A DNA stretch of 44,992 nucleotides, taken from the sequence record NC_110914.1. The stretch is one strand, 5' to 3'. The translations under genes and the position numbers were made by a program. The notes beneath the pieces are model-generated. The model was not told the DNA's origin, ran no database searches, and saw only the letters and a program-made list of their open reading frames with translations. The first letter of the stretch is position 1; the number at the start of each line of letters is the position of its first letter. The stretch is from a phage. This document shows, in pieces, positions 33,162-43,282 of this stretch.

Positions 33162-34166
33162 ATGGGCGCGGAGATTAATATTTTGGAAACTGATTTTAAA
33201 ATAACCCTCGAAGGTTTCGCTACTGAGCAAGAAGCAAATAATATCGGTAATTTCACACTAGAAGCTATCCGAGCTTTAACAAAAAATCTCAATCTTGATA
33301 TCTCCAAATTAAAATGCGTGATTGTTTCCTATAACTTCAGTGAAGCTCTTCAAAAGGTAACATCCTCTTACCAACACAAATCCCCTAGTTCATTTACCAA
33401 TAGCAAACAGGGCGCAGCCGTCGGGCAGTTAGTAACAAAAATTGGCAATGATGGGCTATGTGAAGAATATACCCTTGTGCTATCGATTGATTTTTTTGTT
33501 GAGCTTTTCAATGATGGTAGCTTCTTAAAACTGAAAGAAGAAGGATACCTCGCAGTCATCCATCGCATTCACCATGAATTAGTGCACGTACATGAAAAAA
33601 ACTTACTAACATGCTTAGCCCAAAACTTTACAGTCAACGAGTATGGTAGCGCGCTTCTTATCTCAGCCACGCGTGCATGGTCTGAATATCTCGCTAATTA
33701 CATGTCTTCGGGGTCTGCCCCTCAAGAAACTATCGATTTATTTTTAGAGAATCTTGACACTGTTGTAAATGAAGTATCTGACGAGATTGAAAAACTCATC
33801 TGGGGTTATAAGTACGGTAATATTTCTCTGAATGACATGTATCTCGAAGTAAAAAAACGTATCAGGCTAATCATCAACTCTTATGCTTATGCGATGGGTT
33901 ATGTCCATTCTCTAAACATCAATATTAAAGAATACGATCCAAAGCTATCCCTTACACTATCCAACTCAAAGATAAGATATCAATTATCAGAATTAGGCAT
34001 TGCTTTTCAGAATCTTTATGGGAAGTTTAATGACCAGCACATTACAGGTTTTGGTGATTTTCGGGAGATAACAATAATCATTGATGAAATATTCAAGCAG
34101 TTTGGGCTTGTTTTAGAGTGTCCCGATTGGTCTGGCGACGGTGAACTCTACATACATGTAAATTAG
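33162..34166 (+). CDS. Hypothetical HExxH-motif protein (cargo gene between portal and cos)
   Basis: 334-aa AT-rich ORF with HRIHHELVHVHE (HExxH) and a Glu about 20 residues downstream (NEYG), suggestive of a zinc metallopeptidase fold. No recognised homologue from memory. Confidence 0.55.
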   Translation: MGAEINILETDFKITLEGFATEQEANNIGNFTLEAIRALTKNLNLDISKLKCVIVSYNFSEALQKVTSSYQHKSPSSFTNSKQGAAVGQLVTKIGNDGLCEEYTLVLSIDFFVELFNDGSFLKLKEEGYLAVIHRIHHELVHVHEKNLLTCLAQNFTVNEYGSALLISATRAWSEYLANYMSSGSAPQETIDLFLENLDTVVNEVSDEIEKLIWGYKYGNISLNDMYLEVKKRIRLIINSYAYAMGYVHSLNINIKEYDPKLSLTLSNSKIRYQLSELGIAFQNLYGKFNDQHITGFGDFREITIIIDEIFKQFGLVLECPDWSGDGELYIHVN

Positions 34167-34641: not shown

Positions 34642-35583
34642 ATGCAAGGTGAAGTTGACGAACAGCAACCCAATGAGATTATGTCGGAGTTTGGATACTA
34701 TCCAGTAGAAGTTAACATTGAGACTGAACAATTTTCTTTGCTTACTTTACCTGGTCTCAATGAGAAAGTGGAGCGTGTTAATAATGATAAAAACGTTGTG
34801 AAAGGTTGGATATACCCTGGAAACCAAGATGTATATAACCTTAATGGTGGCATATCCACAATGCCTTATAGTCACCGAGTATTCAGTATGCCCAAAACGC
34901 ACACACTAAAATTAAAAAATACATCCTCGTTAGAAACTCTCAACTTTATTGTGTGGTGCCTTTCTTTTTTCAAGGGAATAAGATTGACAACCACTGACGC
35001 TGGTTTTTTAGATGCAACCACTATCAAGCCCACTAAGTTAACCGACTTTATTCTCGTTGGATGCTCTGAAAAAGAAGTCATAGAACTGGCTCTTAATTAT
35101 ATAAATGGCAAACATAAGGATGCGCACTCCCCCAAAAGAATTGCGGCAGTGGTGCATGCACTATTCTTATCTCAAAACCCACAATACCTTTCTTTTGAAA
35201 AATTCCAGTACCTTTACATGGCACTTGATGGGTGCTTTGCTTTGTCGTGGGCTGAGCATGACAAGGCTCCTGATAAAAAACCGCCAAATCATTACAAGCG
35301 ATTAAAGTGGATGTGCAAAATTTATGGGTTATCAATCCCCACATGGGTGTCAGGTAAAAAAAACATTTCTGGCATCCGCAATGATAATTTTCATGAGGCT
35401 ATTTTTTTTGGTCAACCGCTTGGTTTCTCAAGTGTTAACAACAGTCAATATGGTAACGATATATTGCTGCAAATGCAGGCACTGGTATGTCGCCTATTAG
35501 CGGCAATACTGTCGGTTAATGATTGCAGTTATCTCAAATCTTCGGTCAACTCACGAGATTACCATTCATTAAAAATAAATTAA
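34642..35583 (+). CDS. Hypothetical protein with R-x4-H motif (cargo gene at the P2 old/tin position)
   Basis: 313-aa AT-rich ORF with its own AT-rich upstream region and a GGAG-type RBS; contains ...GIRNDNFHEAIFF... (R-x4-H, possibly HEPN-like). No recognised homologue from memory. Confidence 0.55.
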   Translation: MQGEVDEQQPNEIMSEFGYYPVEVNIETEQFSLLTLPGLNEKVERVNNDKNVVKGWIYPGNQDVYNLNGGISTMPYSHRVFSMPKTHTLKLKNTSSLETLNFIVWCLSFFKGIRLTTTDAGFLDATTIKPTKLTDFILVGCSEKEVIELALNYINGKHKDAHSPKRIAAVVHALFLSQNPQYLSFEKFQYLYMALDGCFALSWAEHDKAPDKKPPNHYKRLKWMCKIYGLSIPTWVSGKKNISGIRNDNFHEAIFFGQPLGFSSVNNSQYGNDILLQMQALVCRLLAAILSVNDCSYLKSSVNSRDYHSLKIN

Positions 35584-35657: not shown

Positions 35658-35867
35658 CTATCGTCGACGTGGTGGTGGTGCGTATTGTTTCGACCTGCTG
35701 ATGCTATCCAGCTTGCCGTAATTATCCCTGACTATTTCGGCACACCCGACCAGCTCTGCGGGTGTCAAATTCTCATTGACCATTATCTGCTGCAAACGAT
35801 GAACGATGGCCATCAGTTTGATGCTTTTAGTTTTGTGTTGCGGTATTTCACCTGGTAGTCGATGCAT
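35658..35867 (-). CDS. Small hypothetical protein (weak call)
   Basis: 69-aa ORF between two ~50-bp direct repeats; protein-like composition but no supporting motif. Confidence 0.25.
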   Translation of the reverse strand: MHRLPGEIPQHKTKSIKLMAIVHRLQQIMVNENLTPAELVGCAEIVRDNYGKLDSISRSKQYAPPPRRR

Positions 35868-36066
35868 ATTATCACCCTCAATGAATTTTAATCAGTGCCG
35901 TCAAAACGCCACTATAAAACCATCTCAGGTCATGCCTCATTAATCATGGGCGTGTCATCAATAGCACATTGAGAAATTTTGAAAGGCAGGACTTAAGCCT
36001 CGTGGGCTCGTTACTCAACCCCGCCGACGCAAAAAGCTAGTTTTTGCGCCAGCACGGTTATTATGT

Positions 36067-36300: not shown

Positions 36301-36483
36301 CTAATCAGCCTTATAAAAATTATCATCTTCGGTTTCGTTATTTTCGCTGTTTGCTAGGTCTGCAATGAGAGTGAGCGCGAGCTTTAAGTCTGATGGCTTG
36401 CAGTTTGCAATCAGAGATACCTCGGCAATAAATTGCACACAAGCCCACTTTTGCTGCGTTCGGCTGAAATGTTCGCCAACCAT
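36301..36483 (-). CDS. Small protein upstream of and in frame with the DinI-like ORF (possible N-terminal part of a Tum-like antirepressor)
   Basis: 60-aa ORF separated from the DinI-like ORF only by an in-frame TAG; GGGAGG RBS before its ATG. Confidence 0.5.
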   Translation of the reverse strand: MVGEHFSRTQQKWACVQFIAEVSLIANCKPSDLKLALTLIADLANSENNETEDDNFYKAD

Positions 36484-36504: not shown

Positions 36505-36520
36505 CTGTATATTTATACAG
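36505..36520. promoter_or_regulatory. LexA box overlapping the promoter of the Tum-like module
   Basis: Perfect CTGTATATTTATACAG (CTGT-N8-ACAG) about 20 nt upstream of the 36483 start, overlapping a TTGCCA ... TATAAAT promoter-like element on the minus strand. Confidence 0.75.
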
Positions 36521-39846: not shown

Positions 39847-40356
39847 TCAAATCAGACCAAACGATGCGCCAATACCGCTCATGGTATCGACCACGCTCGA
39901 CATAGCTGGATTAGTCTGCAGACGTGCATGCAGCGCCAGAGCCGACAATGACAACATGCGAATGCCGGAGTTAACGCTTTCAATCATGTTGTGCTTACGG
40001 GCAATGGTCAGACGTTCATCAGATACCGCGCCGCTCGCCAGTTCGCCGAGTTCACGCATTGCGCGCATGACATAAGACTGCAATTTGTCTTTAGCCAACT
40101 CATTAACCGGCACGCATGGTAGGCAGTGAATCTGCGCTAAAAAACCATCAATGAGGGTTGAGTCTTCGGTCAGGTCAGTCAGCAGCCACAATTCAGACGG
40201 CGTGAACTGGTGAGGCTGTTCCGGGTTGAGCTTGTTACGTAACGTTTGAACGTTCATACCTGCACGCTCGGCCAGCTTCGCCATGTTGTGACGCTGTGCG
40301 AAAATGCGGCATGCTTCGTCATAGTGGGGATGTTTGGAAACCTGAAAATCAAACAT
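39847..40356 (-). CDS. cII: 186-type CII transcriptional activator
   Basis: Product from MFDFQVSKHPHYDEACRIFAQRHNMAKLAERAGMNVQTLRNKLNPEQPHQFTPSELWLLTDL... is near-identical to remembered phage 186 CII; start trimmed from the track ORF. Confidence 0.85.
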   Translation of the reverse strand: MFDFQVSKHPHYDEACRIFAQRHNMAKLAERAGMNVQTLRNKLNPEQPHQFTPSELWLLTDLTEDSTLIDGFLAQIHCLPCVPVNELAKDKLQSYVMRAMRELGELASGAVSDERLTIARKHNMIESVNSGIRMLSLSALALHARLQTNPAMSSVVDTMSGIGASFGLI

Positions 40357-40388
40357 GGTTAAATTCCCTCTAACTTGCATAATCAAAT

Positions 40389-40760
40389 TCAGTTAAGAGC
40401 GGTGCGCTGGTCGATGTAGCGACAATCAATCGCTTGTTGAGTCAGCTTATCGCGCCATGCTTTTACGTTTACGAGGGTTCGGCTTCGTTTAGCAGCTTCC
40501 TCTTTGTTGGAAAAGTCTTTGGTCGGAGCTTTGAGAAGGACTCCCTCATCGAGCCATTGCCAGACCAGACGCTCGCTAACACCGCGAGTAGCGGCGAAGT
40601 CTTTCACAGTCATCGTGTCTGACATAGCGGAGCGAATCATTGTCTGTAGAGCTGGCAGCATGGCGGTAACGATGGCATCAAACTGTGTTGGATTTAGCAG
40701 CACAGTTTGATTTTGTGAGTTTTGCGAGTCGTGCGTCGAGATTGATTTTGCATCTGACAT
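40389..40760 (-). CDS. Apl/Cox-like excisionase/transcriptional regulator (first gene of the early operon)
   Basis: First early-operon ORF, divergent from cI, with an HTH-like segment (TVKDFAATRGVSERLVWQWLDEGVLL); true start may be an internal Met (83-90 aa). Confidence 0.55.
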   Translation of the reverse strand: MSDAKSISTHDSQNSQNQTVLLNPTQFDAIVTAMLPALQTMIRSAMSDTMTVKDFAATRGVSERLVWQWLDEGVLLKAPTKDFSNKEEAAKRSRTLVNVKAWRDKLTQQAIDCRYIDQRTALN

Positions 40761-40881
40761 ATCGCATTATCTCCTGTTGTTTGAAATGTAGTGCAGTGGT
40801 GTGCATCTTGGTCGATGAATGCCACTATAGATCGTAAAAAGTTTTCTGTAAACACCCATAAAATTATCTGTAGGGGGTTTT
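40761..40881. promoter_or_regulatory. Lysis-lysogeny switch region (face-to-face pR/pL promoters and operators expected)
   Basis: 121-bp AT-rich intergenic region between divergent cI and apl-like genes, as in 186/P2; individual promoters not mapped. Confidence 0.55.
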
Positions 40882-41742
40882 ATGAGTTCTGAGCTTGATG
40901 TTCAGTGGCGTGTTAGTGCAACGAACGGCGTATTGGAACGCTTAATGTCAGCCTATGGGGTCAAGATGCAAAAGGATTTGGCTGACCTGCTAGGTATCGC
41001 TAAACACAGCGTTAGCGGCTGGGTTCAGCGTGATGCAATACCTGGCAATGTCATAGTTAGGTGTTGTCTTGACACGGGAGCTGATATCAATTGGCTTGTA
41101 AATGGAGAGCTTGCAAATGCAAATCACGAGCGAGCCAGTTGCAAGTTAAAAGGCAAAGAGCTTTATGACGAGATTATGACGAATGGTGGTAAAACCGTTT
41201 TGCGTAGGATTCTTGATGCGTATGGCTTTACCATGCAAAAGGAGCTCGGTGATTTGCTCGGCATTTCCTCTGGCACAATTAGCACATGGGTAAGGCGAGA
41301 TTTTTTCCCTGGTGATGTTGTTGTTACATGCGCTCTTGATACCGATACGTCACTGGAATGGTTAGCAACAGGCAAGGGGCAAATGCGAGCTAACAGGGAA
41401 GATGTCACATCTGGTTTTTCTATTAAAAAATCTCGTCTTGAATCTGGTGAGCTTAAGGATGCAGGAACGTGGCATCCTGACCCCTCAATGATTCCTTCTA
41501 ACTCAGGGGAATTGATTTTTGTTGACGGTGTAGCTGCCTCTTGGCTTGTCGACTGTTCTGCTTCGAATATAAGTAATGGTCGCTGGTTAATTGATATCGA
41601 CGGCGCTCTTGATGTTTTTGATGTAATTCGTTTACCTGGTGGAAAAGTCAGGTTGTCAAATAAGTCTGCTGAGTTTGAATGCAACATTACCGACATTACG
41701 CCTGCCGGGGTTGTAGTTTTCACATTGGAAAAACACGTATAA
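40882..41742 (+). CDS. cI: CI-type immunity repressor with tandemly duplicated N-terminal HTH domain
   Basis: 286-aa ORF divergent from the early operon; two related N-terminal segments (...LERLMSAYGVKMQKDLADLLGIAKHSVSGWVQRDAIPGNVIVRCCLDTGADINWLVNGE and ...LRRILDAYGFTMQKELGDLLGISSGTISTWVRRDFFPGDVVVTCALDTDTSLEWLATGK). No LexA-like Ser/Lys cleavage motif seen. Confidence 0.7.
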   Translation: MSSELDVQWRVSATNGVLERLMSAYGVKMQKDLADLLGIAKHSVSGWVQRDAIPGNVIVRCCLDTGADINWLVNGELANANHERASCKLKGKELYDEIMTNGGKTVLRRILDAYGFTMQKELGDLLGISSGTISTWVRRDFFPGDVVVTCALDTDTSLEWLATGKGQMRANREDVTSGFSIKKSRLESGELKDAGTWHPDPSMIPSNSGELIFVDGVAASWLVDCSASNISNGRWLIDIDGALDVFDVIRLPGGKVRLSNKSAEFECNITDITPAGVVVFTLEKHV

Positions 41743-41750
41743 GGGAAATT

Positions 41751-42089
41751 ATGAAACGTAAACTCTTTTTAGCTATGCTTCTTACCTTTTCTTTTGGCTC
41801 CTTAGCCGCTGAAAAAACACAGGATTTAGATGGCGCTAAGTTTGGTGAGGATTGGCCGTTAACTTTTGAAAAAGCTACGGTGTCTTGCGTTAACGGTAAG
41901 TATGCCTTTGTATACGACAAAGCAACTGATGACCGATACCCATTAAATGGTTTTGCTATTGATGGAGTAAAGTCTGGAAAGCTTGAGGGGAGCAATATTG
42001 ATGCTGTTTGGAAAGACAGTCCAGAGTATGCAGGTGTAAAAATTCCTTTGGATCCTGTAATGGATGCCGCAACAGCACTTTGCGAATAA
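41751..42089 (+). CDS. Small secreted protein of unknown function (moron between cI and int)
   Basis: 112-aa product with signal peptide (MKRKLFLAMLLTFSFGSLAAEKTQ); start trimmed from ORF 41679..42089; co-directional with cI and int. Confidence 0.6.
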   Translation: MKRKLFLAMLLTFSFGSLAAEKTQDLDGAKFGEDWPLTFEKATVSCVNGKYAFVYDKATDDRYPLNGFAIDGVKSGKLEGSNIDAVWKDSPEYAGVKIPLDPVMDAATALCE

Positions 42090-42111: not shown

Positions 42112-43161
42112 ATGACTGTAAGTAAGCAAAAAAATGGCAAATGGTTATGCGAGCTCTATCCAAATGGTCGAGAAGGGCGGCGTATACGTCGGCAATTCAA
42201 TACCAAAGGTGAGGCCGAGGCATTCGAAGCATTTACCAAAAGCGAGAGTGAAGATAAGCCGTGGCTTGGCAAGAAAGAAGACCGCCGACGCTTAAGCGAG
42301 ATTATTCAGCTTTGGCACAATTTGCACGGTCAAGCGTTAGTCGCCAGTAAGTCGAGGTTAGCAAAGCTTCAAATCGTATGTAATGGGCTTGGTGACCCGA
42401 TTGCATCTCGCCTTACCGCGAAAGACTGGGCTCATTATCGTGACCGTCGATTACGTGGTGAAATAGACAACGGTTATCATAAAGACCCCTCGAAATGGAT
42501 CGCCAAACCTATAACCGTCAATCGCGAACAACAATACCTAGAAGCAGTGTTTAATGAGCTCCGCCGGTTAGGGGAGTGGAGCCTACCCAATCCACTTGAT
42601 GGGATCCGAGTATTCAAAGAGGCTGAGAAAGAAATGTCCTGGCTAACTTTGTCTCAGCTCCCGGAGCTGTTTCGAGCCTGCGAGCAATACGGCAAAGAAG
42701 ACCTCACCATGATTGTTAAGGTGTGCCTTGCAACCGGCGCTCGATGGGGGGAAGCGGAGAGATTGACCCGCCCTCAACTTTCTCCATATAAACTGACGTT
42801 CACCAAAACCAAAGGTAAGAAGAATCGCACAGTTCCTATTCCTAAATGGCTGTACGACGAGTTGTCCGTACGTCAAGGCAGAATGTTTAAACCCTGCTAT
42901 CAGGAGTTTAAGAAGATGCTCAAACTAACGAATATTGAATTGACGGAAGGGCAGAAGACGCACGTTTTGCGTCATACTTTTGGTGCGCATTTTATGATGA
43001 ACGGCGGGAATATACTGGTACTGCAGAAAATTCTCGGGCATGCCAATATTCGAGAAACAATGAAGTATGCACACTTTGCTCCTGACCACCTTGAACAAGC
43101 TGTAACCCTTAATCCGTTATCGCTGTATGTTGGCGACAATATGGCGGCAGAGGTTGCATAA
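42112..43161 (+). CDS. int: Tyrosine integrase
   Basis: 349-aa ORF with C-terminal catalytic region (...HVLRHTFGAHFMMNGGNILVLQKILGHANIRETMKYAHFAPDHL...) at the prophage edge next to yfiB. Confidence 0.9.
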   Translation: MTVSKQKNGKWLCELYPNGREGRRIRRQFNTKGEAEAFEAFTKSESEDKPWLGKKEDRRRLSEIIQLWHNLHGQALVASKSRLAKLQIVCNGLGDPIASRLTAKDWAHYRDRRLRGEIDNGYHKDPSKWIAKPITVNREQQYLEAVFNELRRLGEWSLPNPLDGIRVFKEAEKEMSWLTLSQLPELFRACEQYGKEDLTMIVKVCLATGARWGEAERLTRPQLSPYKLTFTKTKGKKNRTVPIPKWLYDELSVRQGRMFKPCYQEFKKMLKLTNIELTEGQKTHVLRHTFGAHFMMNGGNILVLQKILGHANIRETMKYAHFAPDHLEQAVTLNPLSLYVGDNMAAEVA

Positions 43162-43282
43162 CACTGCAATTCATTGCATTAAAAATTACTTTAACTAATT
43201 GTTTTATATGGTAAGCGTTTGTTTGTTGCGGGGTGTTAATAGGAGCGTCTTAACTAAGATTTCGCTTAAGCGACATCCTGTT

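Follow-up and report, generated by a model that had tools for sequence, protein, structure and literature searches.

A tandem helix-turn-helix immunity repressor in a PSP3-like prophage, with one variable and one near-constant DNA-binding domain

The lysogeny switch of coliphage 186 is among the best-measured alternatives to that of lambda, with a wheel-shaped CI repressor, face-to-face promoters and the antirepressor Tum. A 186-type CI forms a wheel of seven dimers and acts on inverted-repeat operators at the promoter pR and on the flanking sites FL and FR about 300 bp away. The sequence record NC_110914.1 (44,992 nucleotides (nt), hereafter the window) contains a cI gene whose product has 286 amino acids (aa) against about 192 aa for 186 CI, and the original prediction, made from this sequence alone, attributed the extra length to a second copy of the N-terminal helix-turn-helix (HTH) segment. 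This raises the question of which copy was added, what each of the two now does, and how such a repressor is inactivated. Our answer, which we hold to be probable, is that this CI of a PSP3-like (Eganvirus) prophage of the P2 family uses its first HTH domain (NTD1) as an operator-specific head and its second (NTD2) for a role shared among relatives, and that it is induced through the SOS response and the antirepressor TumA.

The cI gene lies at 40882-41742 on the + strand, exactly where it had been placed, with an ATG start and its stop codon inside these coordinates. Pfam family PF07022 (Phage_CI_repr) matches the product in two stretches (E 1.3e-52 for the whole protein) and PF16452 (Phage_CI_C) matches residues 180-274 (E 1.3e-20); the protein thus carries two HTH domains per subunit and departs from the usual one-HTH layout of the 186 type, which spans about 190-200 aa. 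Local alignment of residues 1-90 with residues 91-286 gives a BLOSUM62 score of 183, far above the chance level defined by 1000 shuffles (27.6 ± 4.5, maximum 49), so that the proposed self-alignment confirms the repeat. The domain envelopes at 12-81 and 98-170 share 49% identity, close to the roughly 45% first estimated, and a trace of the repeat persists in the DNA as a 47-nt stretch with 70% identity, spaced 267 nt.

Structure prediction, also proposed at the outset, points the same way. The AlphaFold2 monomer model, run on a 40-sequence alignment (mean predicted local distance difference test (pLDDT) score 77.5), contains two separate five-helix bundles with helices at 17-74 (17-25, 30-37, 41-49, 55-65 and 69-74) and 103-163, an extra linker helix at 92-101 and a beta-rich C-terminal domain (CTD). 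Across 40 homologues the NTD1 residues R20, Y25, Q30, W47, R50 and W71, which define the fold and the HTH, are invariant, as are G91, K92, Y95, G102 and G103 of the first linker. Low-confidence hinges lie at residues 80-87, where pLDDT falls below 50, and at 170-177. No fixed domain arrangement is predicted, because the predicted template modelling (pTM) score is only 0.49 for the whole protein and 0.45 for residues 1-177, the NTD1-NTD2 segment alone. A fixed intramolecular pseudo-dimer of NTD1 and NTD2 was considered and rejected on this pTM of 0.45 and on a disordered stretch at 78-89 in the model of residues 1-177. The modelled CTD superposes on the 186 CTD (2fkd_A) with a template modelling (TM) score of 0.89 and a root-mean-square deviation of 1.7 Å in Foldseek and, as 186 CI does, shows a distant fold likeness to the LexA and lambda CTDs (E 1e-4 to 1e-6); the S24 peptidase family PF00717 is absent from the Pfam matches of CI.

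Of the two copies, it is the first that was added. The 186 CI (2fjr_A, 189 residues in the crystal; gene of 579 nt) aligns only to residues 105-279 of the window protein (E 1e-21), and the ~190-aa relatives found by an exhaustive HMMER search of 1.84 billion cluster representatives all align to residues ~100-285. Because 186 CI and these relatives match only NTD2 and the CTD, NTD2, its linker and the CTD are the ordinary 186-type unit, and NTD1 with the linker helix is the addition. The predicted difference in length and its attribution to a second N-terminal HTH both stand, and the concern raised with them, that a two-subdomain fold present in every 186-family CI protein had been taken for a repeat, falls away, since those of ordinary length contain one copy.

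In a domain tree, which is indicative only because it is built on domains of ~70 residues, the NTD1 domains are closest, outside their own clade, to the NTD2-type clade and its single-domain relatives. For this reason the tree fits an origin of NTD1 by duplication within this lineage rather than by capture of a foreign HTH. Several single-domain relatives from Rahnella (loci L055, L064 and L058-L074) have in-frame upstream extensions of 30-75 residues or broken matches before the HTH, which could be remnants of a lost NTD1 or artefacts of start-codon choice.

The two HTH domains differ strongly in their conservation. Nine representatives chosen without motif bias (the window protein, P0103, P0121-P0126 and P0128) have on average 46% pairwise identity in NTD1, 68% in NTD2 and 32% in the CTD, and the recognition helices alone give 44% for NTD1 and 77% for NTD2. 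Over 56 tandem loci the NTD2 HTH is almost unchanged as GISSGTISTWVRRDFFPGDVVV; NTD1 has more than 20 different recognition helices, that of the window being GIAKHSVSGWVQR. Median dN/dS, estimated with saturated dS, is 0.28 for NTD1, about 0.06 for NTD2 and 0.30 for the CTD, with both HTH copies under purifying selection. Between the window and phage Midge, for example, we counted 24 synonymous and 28 non-synonymous changes in the 64 codons of NTD1, 30 and 4 in the 64 codons of NTD2, and 21 and 10 in the 101 codons of the CTD. Judging by these substitutions, the coding DNA of NTD2 is old and diverged, its protein has been kept constant by selection, and NTD2 is no recently shared recombinant segment.

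The variation of NTD1 coincides with that of the adjoining operator segment. In a sliding-window comparison with Midge, SI22 and three prophages, the window keeps 90-100% DNA identity across the apl-like gene as far as about 40810; identity is then 26-60% from the pR spacer through the cI start and NTD1, 76-81% in NTD2, where nearly all change is synonymous, and 85-96% in the CTD. NTD1 does not follow the phage backbone among IMG/VR contigs: contigs with Apl and CII 95-99% identical to those of the window have an NTD1 of 55-61% identity, and contigs in which Apl and CII reach only 56-74% have one of 80-84%. Furthermore, when 122 loci were aligned on the promoter hexamers and grouped by NTD1 helix, the 17-nt pR spacer and ~20 nt past the -35 element proved constant within a group and different between the 21 groups, with only the promoter hexamers and a TCG beside the -10 element conserved across all of them. 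The helix PANNISSW, for example, accompanies the pR element AATCGCAAATGCGATT, PTNTISNW accompanies ACACGTAACGTGT, PRSTVSNW accompanies ATGCCGCATTATGCGGCAT, and HANNVSSW accompanies AATTTTnGTT-GTA-AACAAAATT, centred on -35. Since NTD1 changes together with the pR operator segment, it is most likely the immunity-specificity head, on the strength of a correlation and not of proof.

Operator layout differs between the groups as well, comprising short spacer palindromes, 26-36-bp palindromes centred on -35, or direct repeats. The window belongs to an immunity group (AKHSVSGW) with no clear palindrome at pR; it has instead the direct repeats AAAGTTTTCTGTA (40838-40850) and AAAATTATCTGTA (40860-40872), 22 bp apart, and a third TTGTCTGTAG copy at 40640. 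The window has four copies of the motif TTNTCTGTAR where 0.43 would be expected, and three of these, on the + strand, fall within 235 bp of the switch (40640, 40842 and 40864). Direct repeats of 21-22 bp recur in other groups, such as TAAATCGAwwwTGAGT, present twice in Midge. Candidate operator repeats are thus present in the switch region, and none were found upstream of int. We regard the operator geometry as probably different from that of the 186 sites examined, and the comparative data are consistent with the predicted change in both geometry and immunity specificity.

An alternative is that NTD2 is the sole operator reader, as in 186 CI, and that NTD1 is accessory, as a decoy or dock for the antirepressor or a non-specific clamp, its change being unrelated to the operators. 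NTD2 is indeed the orthologue of the 186 DNA-binding domain, single-domain relatives manage with a domain of its type alone, purifying selection on its recognition helix is very strong, and the TCG beside -10, which is not a promoter element, is conserved in all groups. However, the pR operator segment diverges (26-50% DNA identity, with group-specific spacers) where the NTD2 helix is identical, and a constant reader cannot explain diverging operators. The operator sequence instead follows the type of NTD1 helix, and NTD1 retains the residues that define its fold and its HTH. We consider this alternative unlikely.

If NTD1 is the operator-specific head, what is the shared role of NTD2? The 192-196-aa CI proteins of Rahnella, Ewingella, Franconibacter and Citrobacter have this HTH as their sole DNA-binding domain, and because it works alone there, NTD2 can bind DNA; the pR spacers of these single-domain relatives contain CTY-N8-RAG palindromes. 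NTD2 is also near-constant across relatives with different operators, and on these grounds it most likely serves a function that all of them share, either a conserved DNA contact or the docking of an antirepressor. The window encodes a candidate for the latter in a tumA-like gene (Table 1), the product of which is weakly similar to the N-terminal half of 186 Tum and 98% identical to the PSP3 'TumA'. The phage records with a homologue at 98% identity are precisely the nine that have this CI type, some with different operators, and homologues are also present in almost all IMG/VR loci having enough upstream DNA. Together with the dinI-like gene, tumA corresponds to a split 186 tum, as in PSP3, where antirepressor activity is reported to reside in the upstream gene, TumA (PMC3121763). 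The traits of Tum-type induction, a LexA-controlled antirepressor gene and a repressor with no Pfam match to the self-cleaving S24 peptidase, are found here at the level of sequence.

These data bear on another alternative, in which NTD2 has no sequence-specific reading and is a handle for TumA or a spacer to the CTD wheel, with pairs of NTD1 reading all operators. Several groups do have plain pR-spacer palindromes that an NTD1 pair could read (ATCGCAAATGCGAT, ACACGTAACGTGT and ATGCCGCATTATGCGGCAT), and TumA is 98% identical in phages with a shared NTD2 and different operators. On the other hand, the identical HTH is the only DNA-binding domain of the single-domain relatives, the palindromes or repeats in other groups span 26-36 bp and so exceed the usual reach of one HTH pair, and Tum is not known to contact a particular domain even in 186. 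We judge this reading improbable to about the same degree as the previous one. It is scarcely credible that the repeat stems from faulty assembly, a fused pseudogene or a mis-called open reading frame (ORF), or that it is a normal 186-type two-subdomain fold: the tandem architecture of 278-290 aa recurs in the best 120 clusters, nine phage records, ~50 species and, at 100%, E. coli chromosomes, both copies are under purifying selection, ordinary-length CI proteins have a single copy, and no evidence for an artefact was found.

We therefore return to a repressor with an operator-specific NTD1 and a shared role for NTD2, which could work as follows. The two HTH domains fold independently, as beads on a string, with a flexible segment and then a conserved helix between them. 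The cI gene opens a lysogenic operon, cI-DUF2511-int, and faces the pR promoter that drives the apl-like gene and cII. CI oligomers would silence pR by occupying its spacer and -35 region. NTD1 would supply the immunity-specific base recognition, and NTD2 would be an anchor to the conserved DNA element beside -10, or a surface gripped by TumA, or both. Upon SOS induction, cleavage of LexA would permit the synthesis of TumA, which would inactivate CI. The data show the architecture, the homology, the genomic context, the unequal evolution of the HTH copies and their co-variation with the operator region; we infer the domain-to-base contacts, the oligomeric state and the target of TumA in this scheme.

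A more specific form of the proposal, which we consider less likely than not, is a division of labour in which NTD1 and the pR operators are exchanged between backbones and NTD2 is frozen as the handle for TumA, perhaps also as a DNA anchor, with recurrent duplication in at least three independent events. Were it true, heteroimmune PSP3-like prophages in one cell would all be induced by one TumA, and duplication of the HTH would let a repressor change its immunity without losing its induction input. A natural, widespread relative of 186 CI with two heads would show how operator layout and immunity specificity can shift on a constant oligomerisation scaffold and with the same induction input. 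The asymmetry gives a testable hypothesis, and natural domain swaps are available in PSP3, Midge, SI22/SW9 and RCIP0057.

Several observations weigh against these proposals. The CTY-N8-RAG palindromes of the single-domain relatives were not found in the tandem loci and do not match the conserved TCG element. In 80 IMG/VR loci no co-variation of TumA with NTD2 or the CTD is visible, and TumA identity follows the phage backbone; for NTD2 none would be visible because it barely varies. The conservation of NTD2 is inflated in the genome and IMG/VR sets by the retrieval patterns, which lie inside it, the unbiased set gives the same trend from nine proteins, and the saturation of dS limits the dN/dS medians. 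As for the operators, the second direct repeat is altered by point changes in PSP3 and one close relative, the copy at 40640 is missing from PSP3, and comparison with shuffled controls showed no excess of direct repeats in single loci. Counterparts of the 186 FL and FR sites (TTCAC-N5-GTGAA) did not emerge from scans of several loci with pR-like 13-mers and ATCG-type half-sites, and a single four-half-site operator for all immunity groups was rejected, as layouts differ between groups. Heteroimmunity among these phages is likewise deduced from their sequences.

The gene itself is not new: it is a known and common one, already annotated as CI in GenBank. The window protein is 98.3% identical over all 286 residues to the CI of Salmonella phage PSP3 (AAN08403; AY135486 / NC_005340), 97.6% identical to that of phage SEN1 and 73-77% identical to those of Midge, RCIP0057, SI22 and SW9, and this CI type is present in PSP3 and eight further phage records. 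Several E. coli chromosomes carry the 1.9-kb region at 100% identity, and in all it is present in 124 of the 5426 complete E. coli genomes (about 2%). Of the best 120 protein clusters, all but one of 208 aa are of tandem length (267-290 aa), ~50 Enterobacterales species carry a tandem CI in one-genome-per-species contigs, and a relative is encoded on 356 IMG/VR contigs, the genome and IMG/VR loci having been retrieved with peptide patterns located inside NTD2.

PSP3 has the same neighbours as the window (the apl-like orf30, a cII-like gene, the DUF2511-like orf28, int and tumA) and differs by a handful of CI substitutions, the window copy being a prophage in an E. coli chromosome. As the proposed comparison with both repressors makes clear, PSP3 shares the tandem form and 186 has one HTH. 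The PSP3 record is labelled just 'CI; immunity repressor', with the duplicated domain unmentioned, and a comparison of P2-like regulatory genes attributes to PsP3 CI 'a longer C-terminal domain' than that of 186 CI (PMC3448106). Our alignments contradict and correct that description, as the added length is an N-terminal HTH. No account of a duplicated domain was found in the searchable literature, which is weak evidence given its thin coverage of subscription journals, and the duplication seems not to have been described before. What is new here is the asymmetry of the HTH copies, their link to the operator segment and the recurrence of duplications.

This recurrence is seen in other 186-family CI proteins with two HTH domains, namely a Klebsiella phage type of 311-313 aa and the clusters P0184, P0196 and P0198. 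Their two copies are 51-66% identical to one another and only 28-42% identical to either domain of the window protein, and they sit together in the domain tree, which marks them as separate and more recent duplications. Among the 150 listed representatives at 50% identity, those with a CTD comprise 12 tandem and 65 single-HTH proteins. These tandem proteins resemble the window CI in having PF07022 twice with a CTD and in belonging to P2-family phages; in the Klebsiella phages ST437-OXA245phi4.2 (L004) and Kp4860-7 (L005) both recognition helices are nearly the same, and the former has three direct repeats TCACAwwTCG at or just upstream of the cI start (L004 2414-2472).

Compared with better known systems, the window repressor is closest to coliphage 186 CI (2FJR, full length; 2FKD, CTD), which shares both Pfam families and aligns with NTD2 and the CTD over 175 residues. 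The switches also agree in their cI-int operon, a pR that faces pL, Apl-type sites between the two, cII and a LexA-controlled Tum. They differ in that 186 CI (192 aa) has one HTH per subunit rather than two, in the annotated short inverted repeats FL and FR of 186 against the 22-bp-spaced direct repeats at pR here, and in the single tum gene of 186 against TumA and a DinI-like protein. The C repressor of phage P2 has the same role in a P2-family switch, and its operators, two direct repeats flanking the early promoter (PMC1904268), resemble the 21-22-bp direct repeats seen here. However, P2 C is unrelated in sequence, about half the size and has a single DNA-binding domain; no such family appeared among the Pfam or PHROG matches, and C and CI cannot be aligned (PMC3448106). 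Two HTH heads per chain, able to occupy neighbouring major grooves, also occur elsewhere, in the AraC/MarA family and in the tandem XRE HTH protein Wmk of Wolbachia prophages. These show no homology to the window CI and are not oligomeric immunity repressors with a 186-type CTD.

The features of the locus are collected in Table 1. The cI-int lysogenic operon is opposed to the apl-cII early operon, with pR beside cI, in the same order as in 186 and PSP3. The promoter scan found one strong sigma-70 site adjoining cI, the pR candidate (10 of 12 matches), whose position matches the 186 pR annotation and whose form TTTACA-17-TATAGT/TATATT/TAAAGT recurs in 126 of the 135 tandem-CI loci. The pL candidate is strongly conserved across loci, with 8 of 12 matches, which is under the scan threshold.

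Table 1. Coordinates of the cI gene, its domains and the surrounding switch and SOS features in the window
Feature	Coordinates	Strand	Details
dinI-like gene, 76 aa	36067..36297	-	PF06183; aligns to Tum residues 70-146 (C-terminal half of 186 Tum)
tumA-like gene, 60 aa, presumed SOS-controlled antirepressor	36301..36483	-	phrog_1993
LexA box CTGT-N8-ACAG, perfect	36505..36520	.	CTGTATATTTATACAG; upstream of tumA, in a place analogous to 186 p95
cII (CP76 family), lysogeny-establishment activator	39847..40386	-	PF06892, E 4.4e-46
apl/cox-like gene, first of early operon, 123 aa	40389..40760	-	phrog_3554; weak Cox-like excisionase match phrog_575
pL candidate	40742..40770	+	TTGATT-17-CATTAT, facing pR; assigned by analogy with the 186 map
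GTGCA direct repeats, 10 bp apart	40791..40805	+	between pL and pR
pR candidate	40824..40852	-	-35 TTTACA 40852-40847, 17-nt spacer, -10 TATAGT 40829-40824; drives apl-like/cII operon
Putative CI operator region	40830..40872	+	TCG 40832-40834 and two direct repeats; tentative assignment
cI	40882..41742	+	HTH(NTD1)-linker helix-HTH(NTD2)-linker-CTD; ORF, 2x PF07022 and PF16452, 98.3% to PSP3 CI AAN08403
NTD1, extra variable HTH, residues 14-77	40921..41112	+	recognition helix GIAKHSVSGWVQR
Linker 1, residues 78-102	41113..41187	+	flexible stretch, then conserved helix 92-101 LKGKxLYDEIMxNGGK
NTD2, canonical near-invariant HTH, residues 103-166	41188..41379	+	recognition helix GISSGTISTWVRR
CTD, 186-CI-type oligomerisation domain, residues 180-286	41419..41739	+	PF16452; Foldseek to 2fkd_A
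DUF2511 (YebY-like), lysogenic operon	41751..42089	+	PF10709
Integrase, last gene of lysogenic operon	42112..43161	+	PF24624 and PF00589

The GTGCA direct repeats between pL and pR have related TGCA repeats at 43155-43178, just past the int stop codon. Because their motif class follows the subfamily of the Apl-like protein across loci (20 of 20 and 11 of 13), they are probably bound by the Apl/Cox-like protein, both at the switch and on the attachment-site arm, and not by CI; 186 has Apl sites in the same two places. The GTGCA repeats were also considered as a target of NTD2 and rejected, since NTD2 is constant in both motif classes and the class follows the Apl subfamily. The Apl/Cox counterpart itself is unusually long, with 123 aa against 87 aa for 186 Apl, and the protein has no Pfam match; an earlier comparative paper described the PSP3 counterpart as a singleton without detectable domains.

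The DUF2511 product bears a signal peptide, and the order cI-DUF2511-int is shared with PSP3, Midge and SI22; a paper on E. coli YebY briefly notes this context (PMC8689200). From its position between cI and int, prophage expression of DUF2511 is to be expected in lysogens. Two cargo ORFs, of 334 aa (33162-34166) and 313 aa (34642-35583), lie between the portal/cos end and the tum region and have no match in Pfam, PADLOC or NCBIfam; their place in the P2-like variable region would suit accessory or defence genes. Near a 69-aa ORF at 35658-35867 on the - strand (phrog_11386), the intergenic sequence GCCACTATAAAAC at 35904-35920 resembles the pR -10 region GCCACTATAGATC at 40821-40833 and may be another promoter of similar type.

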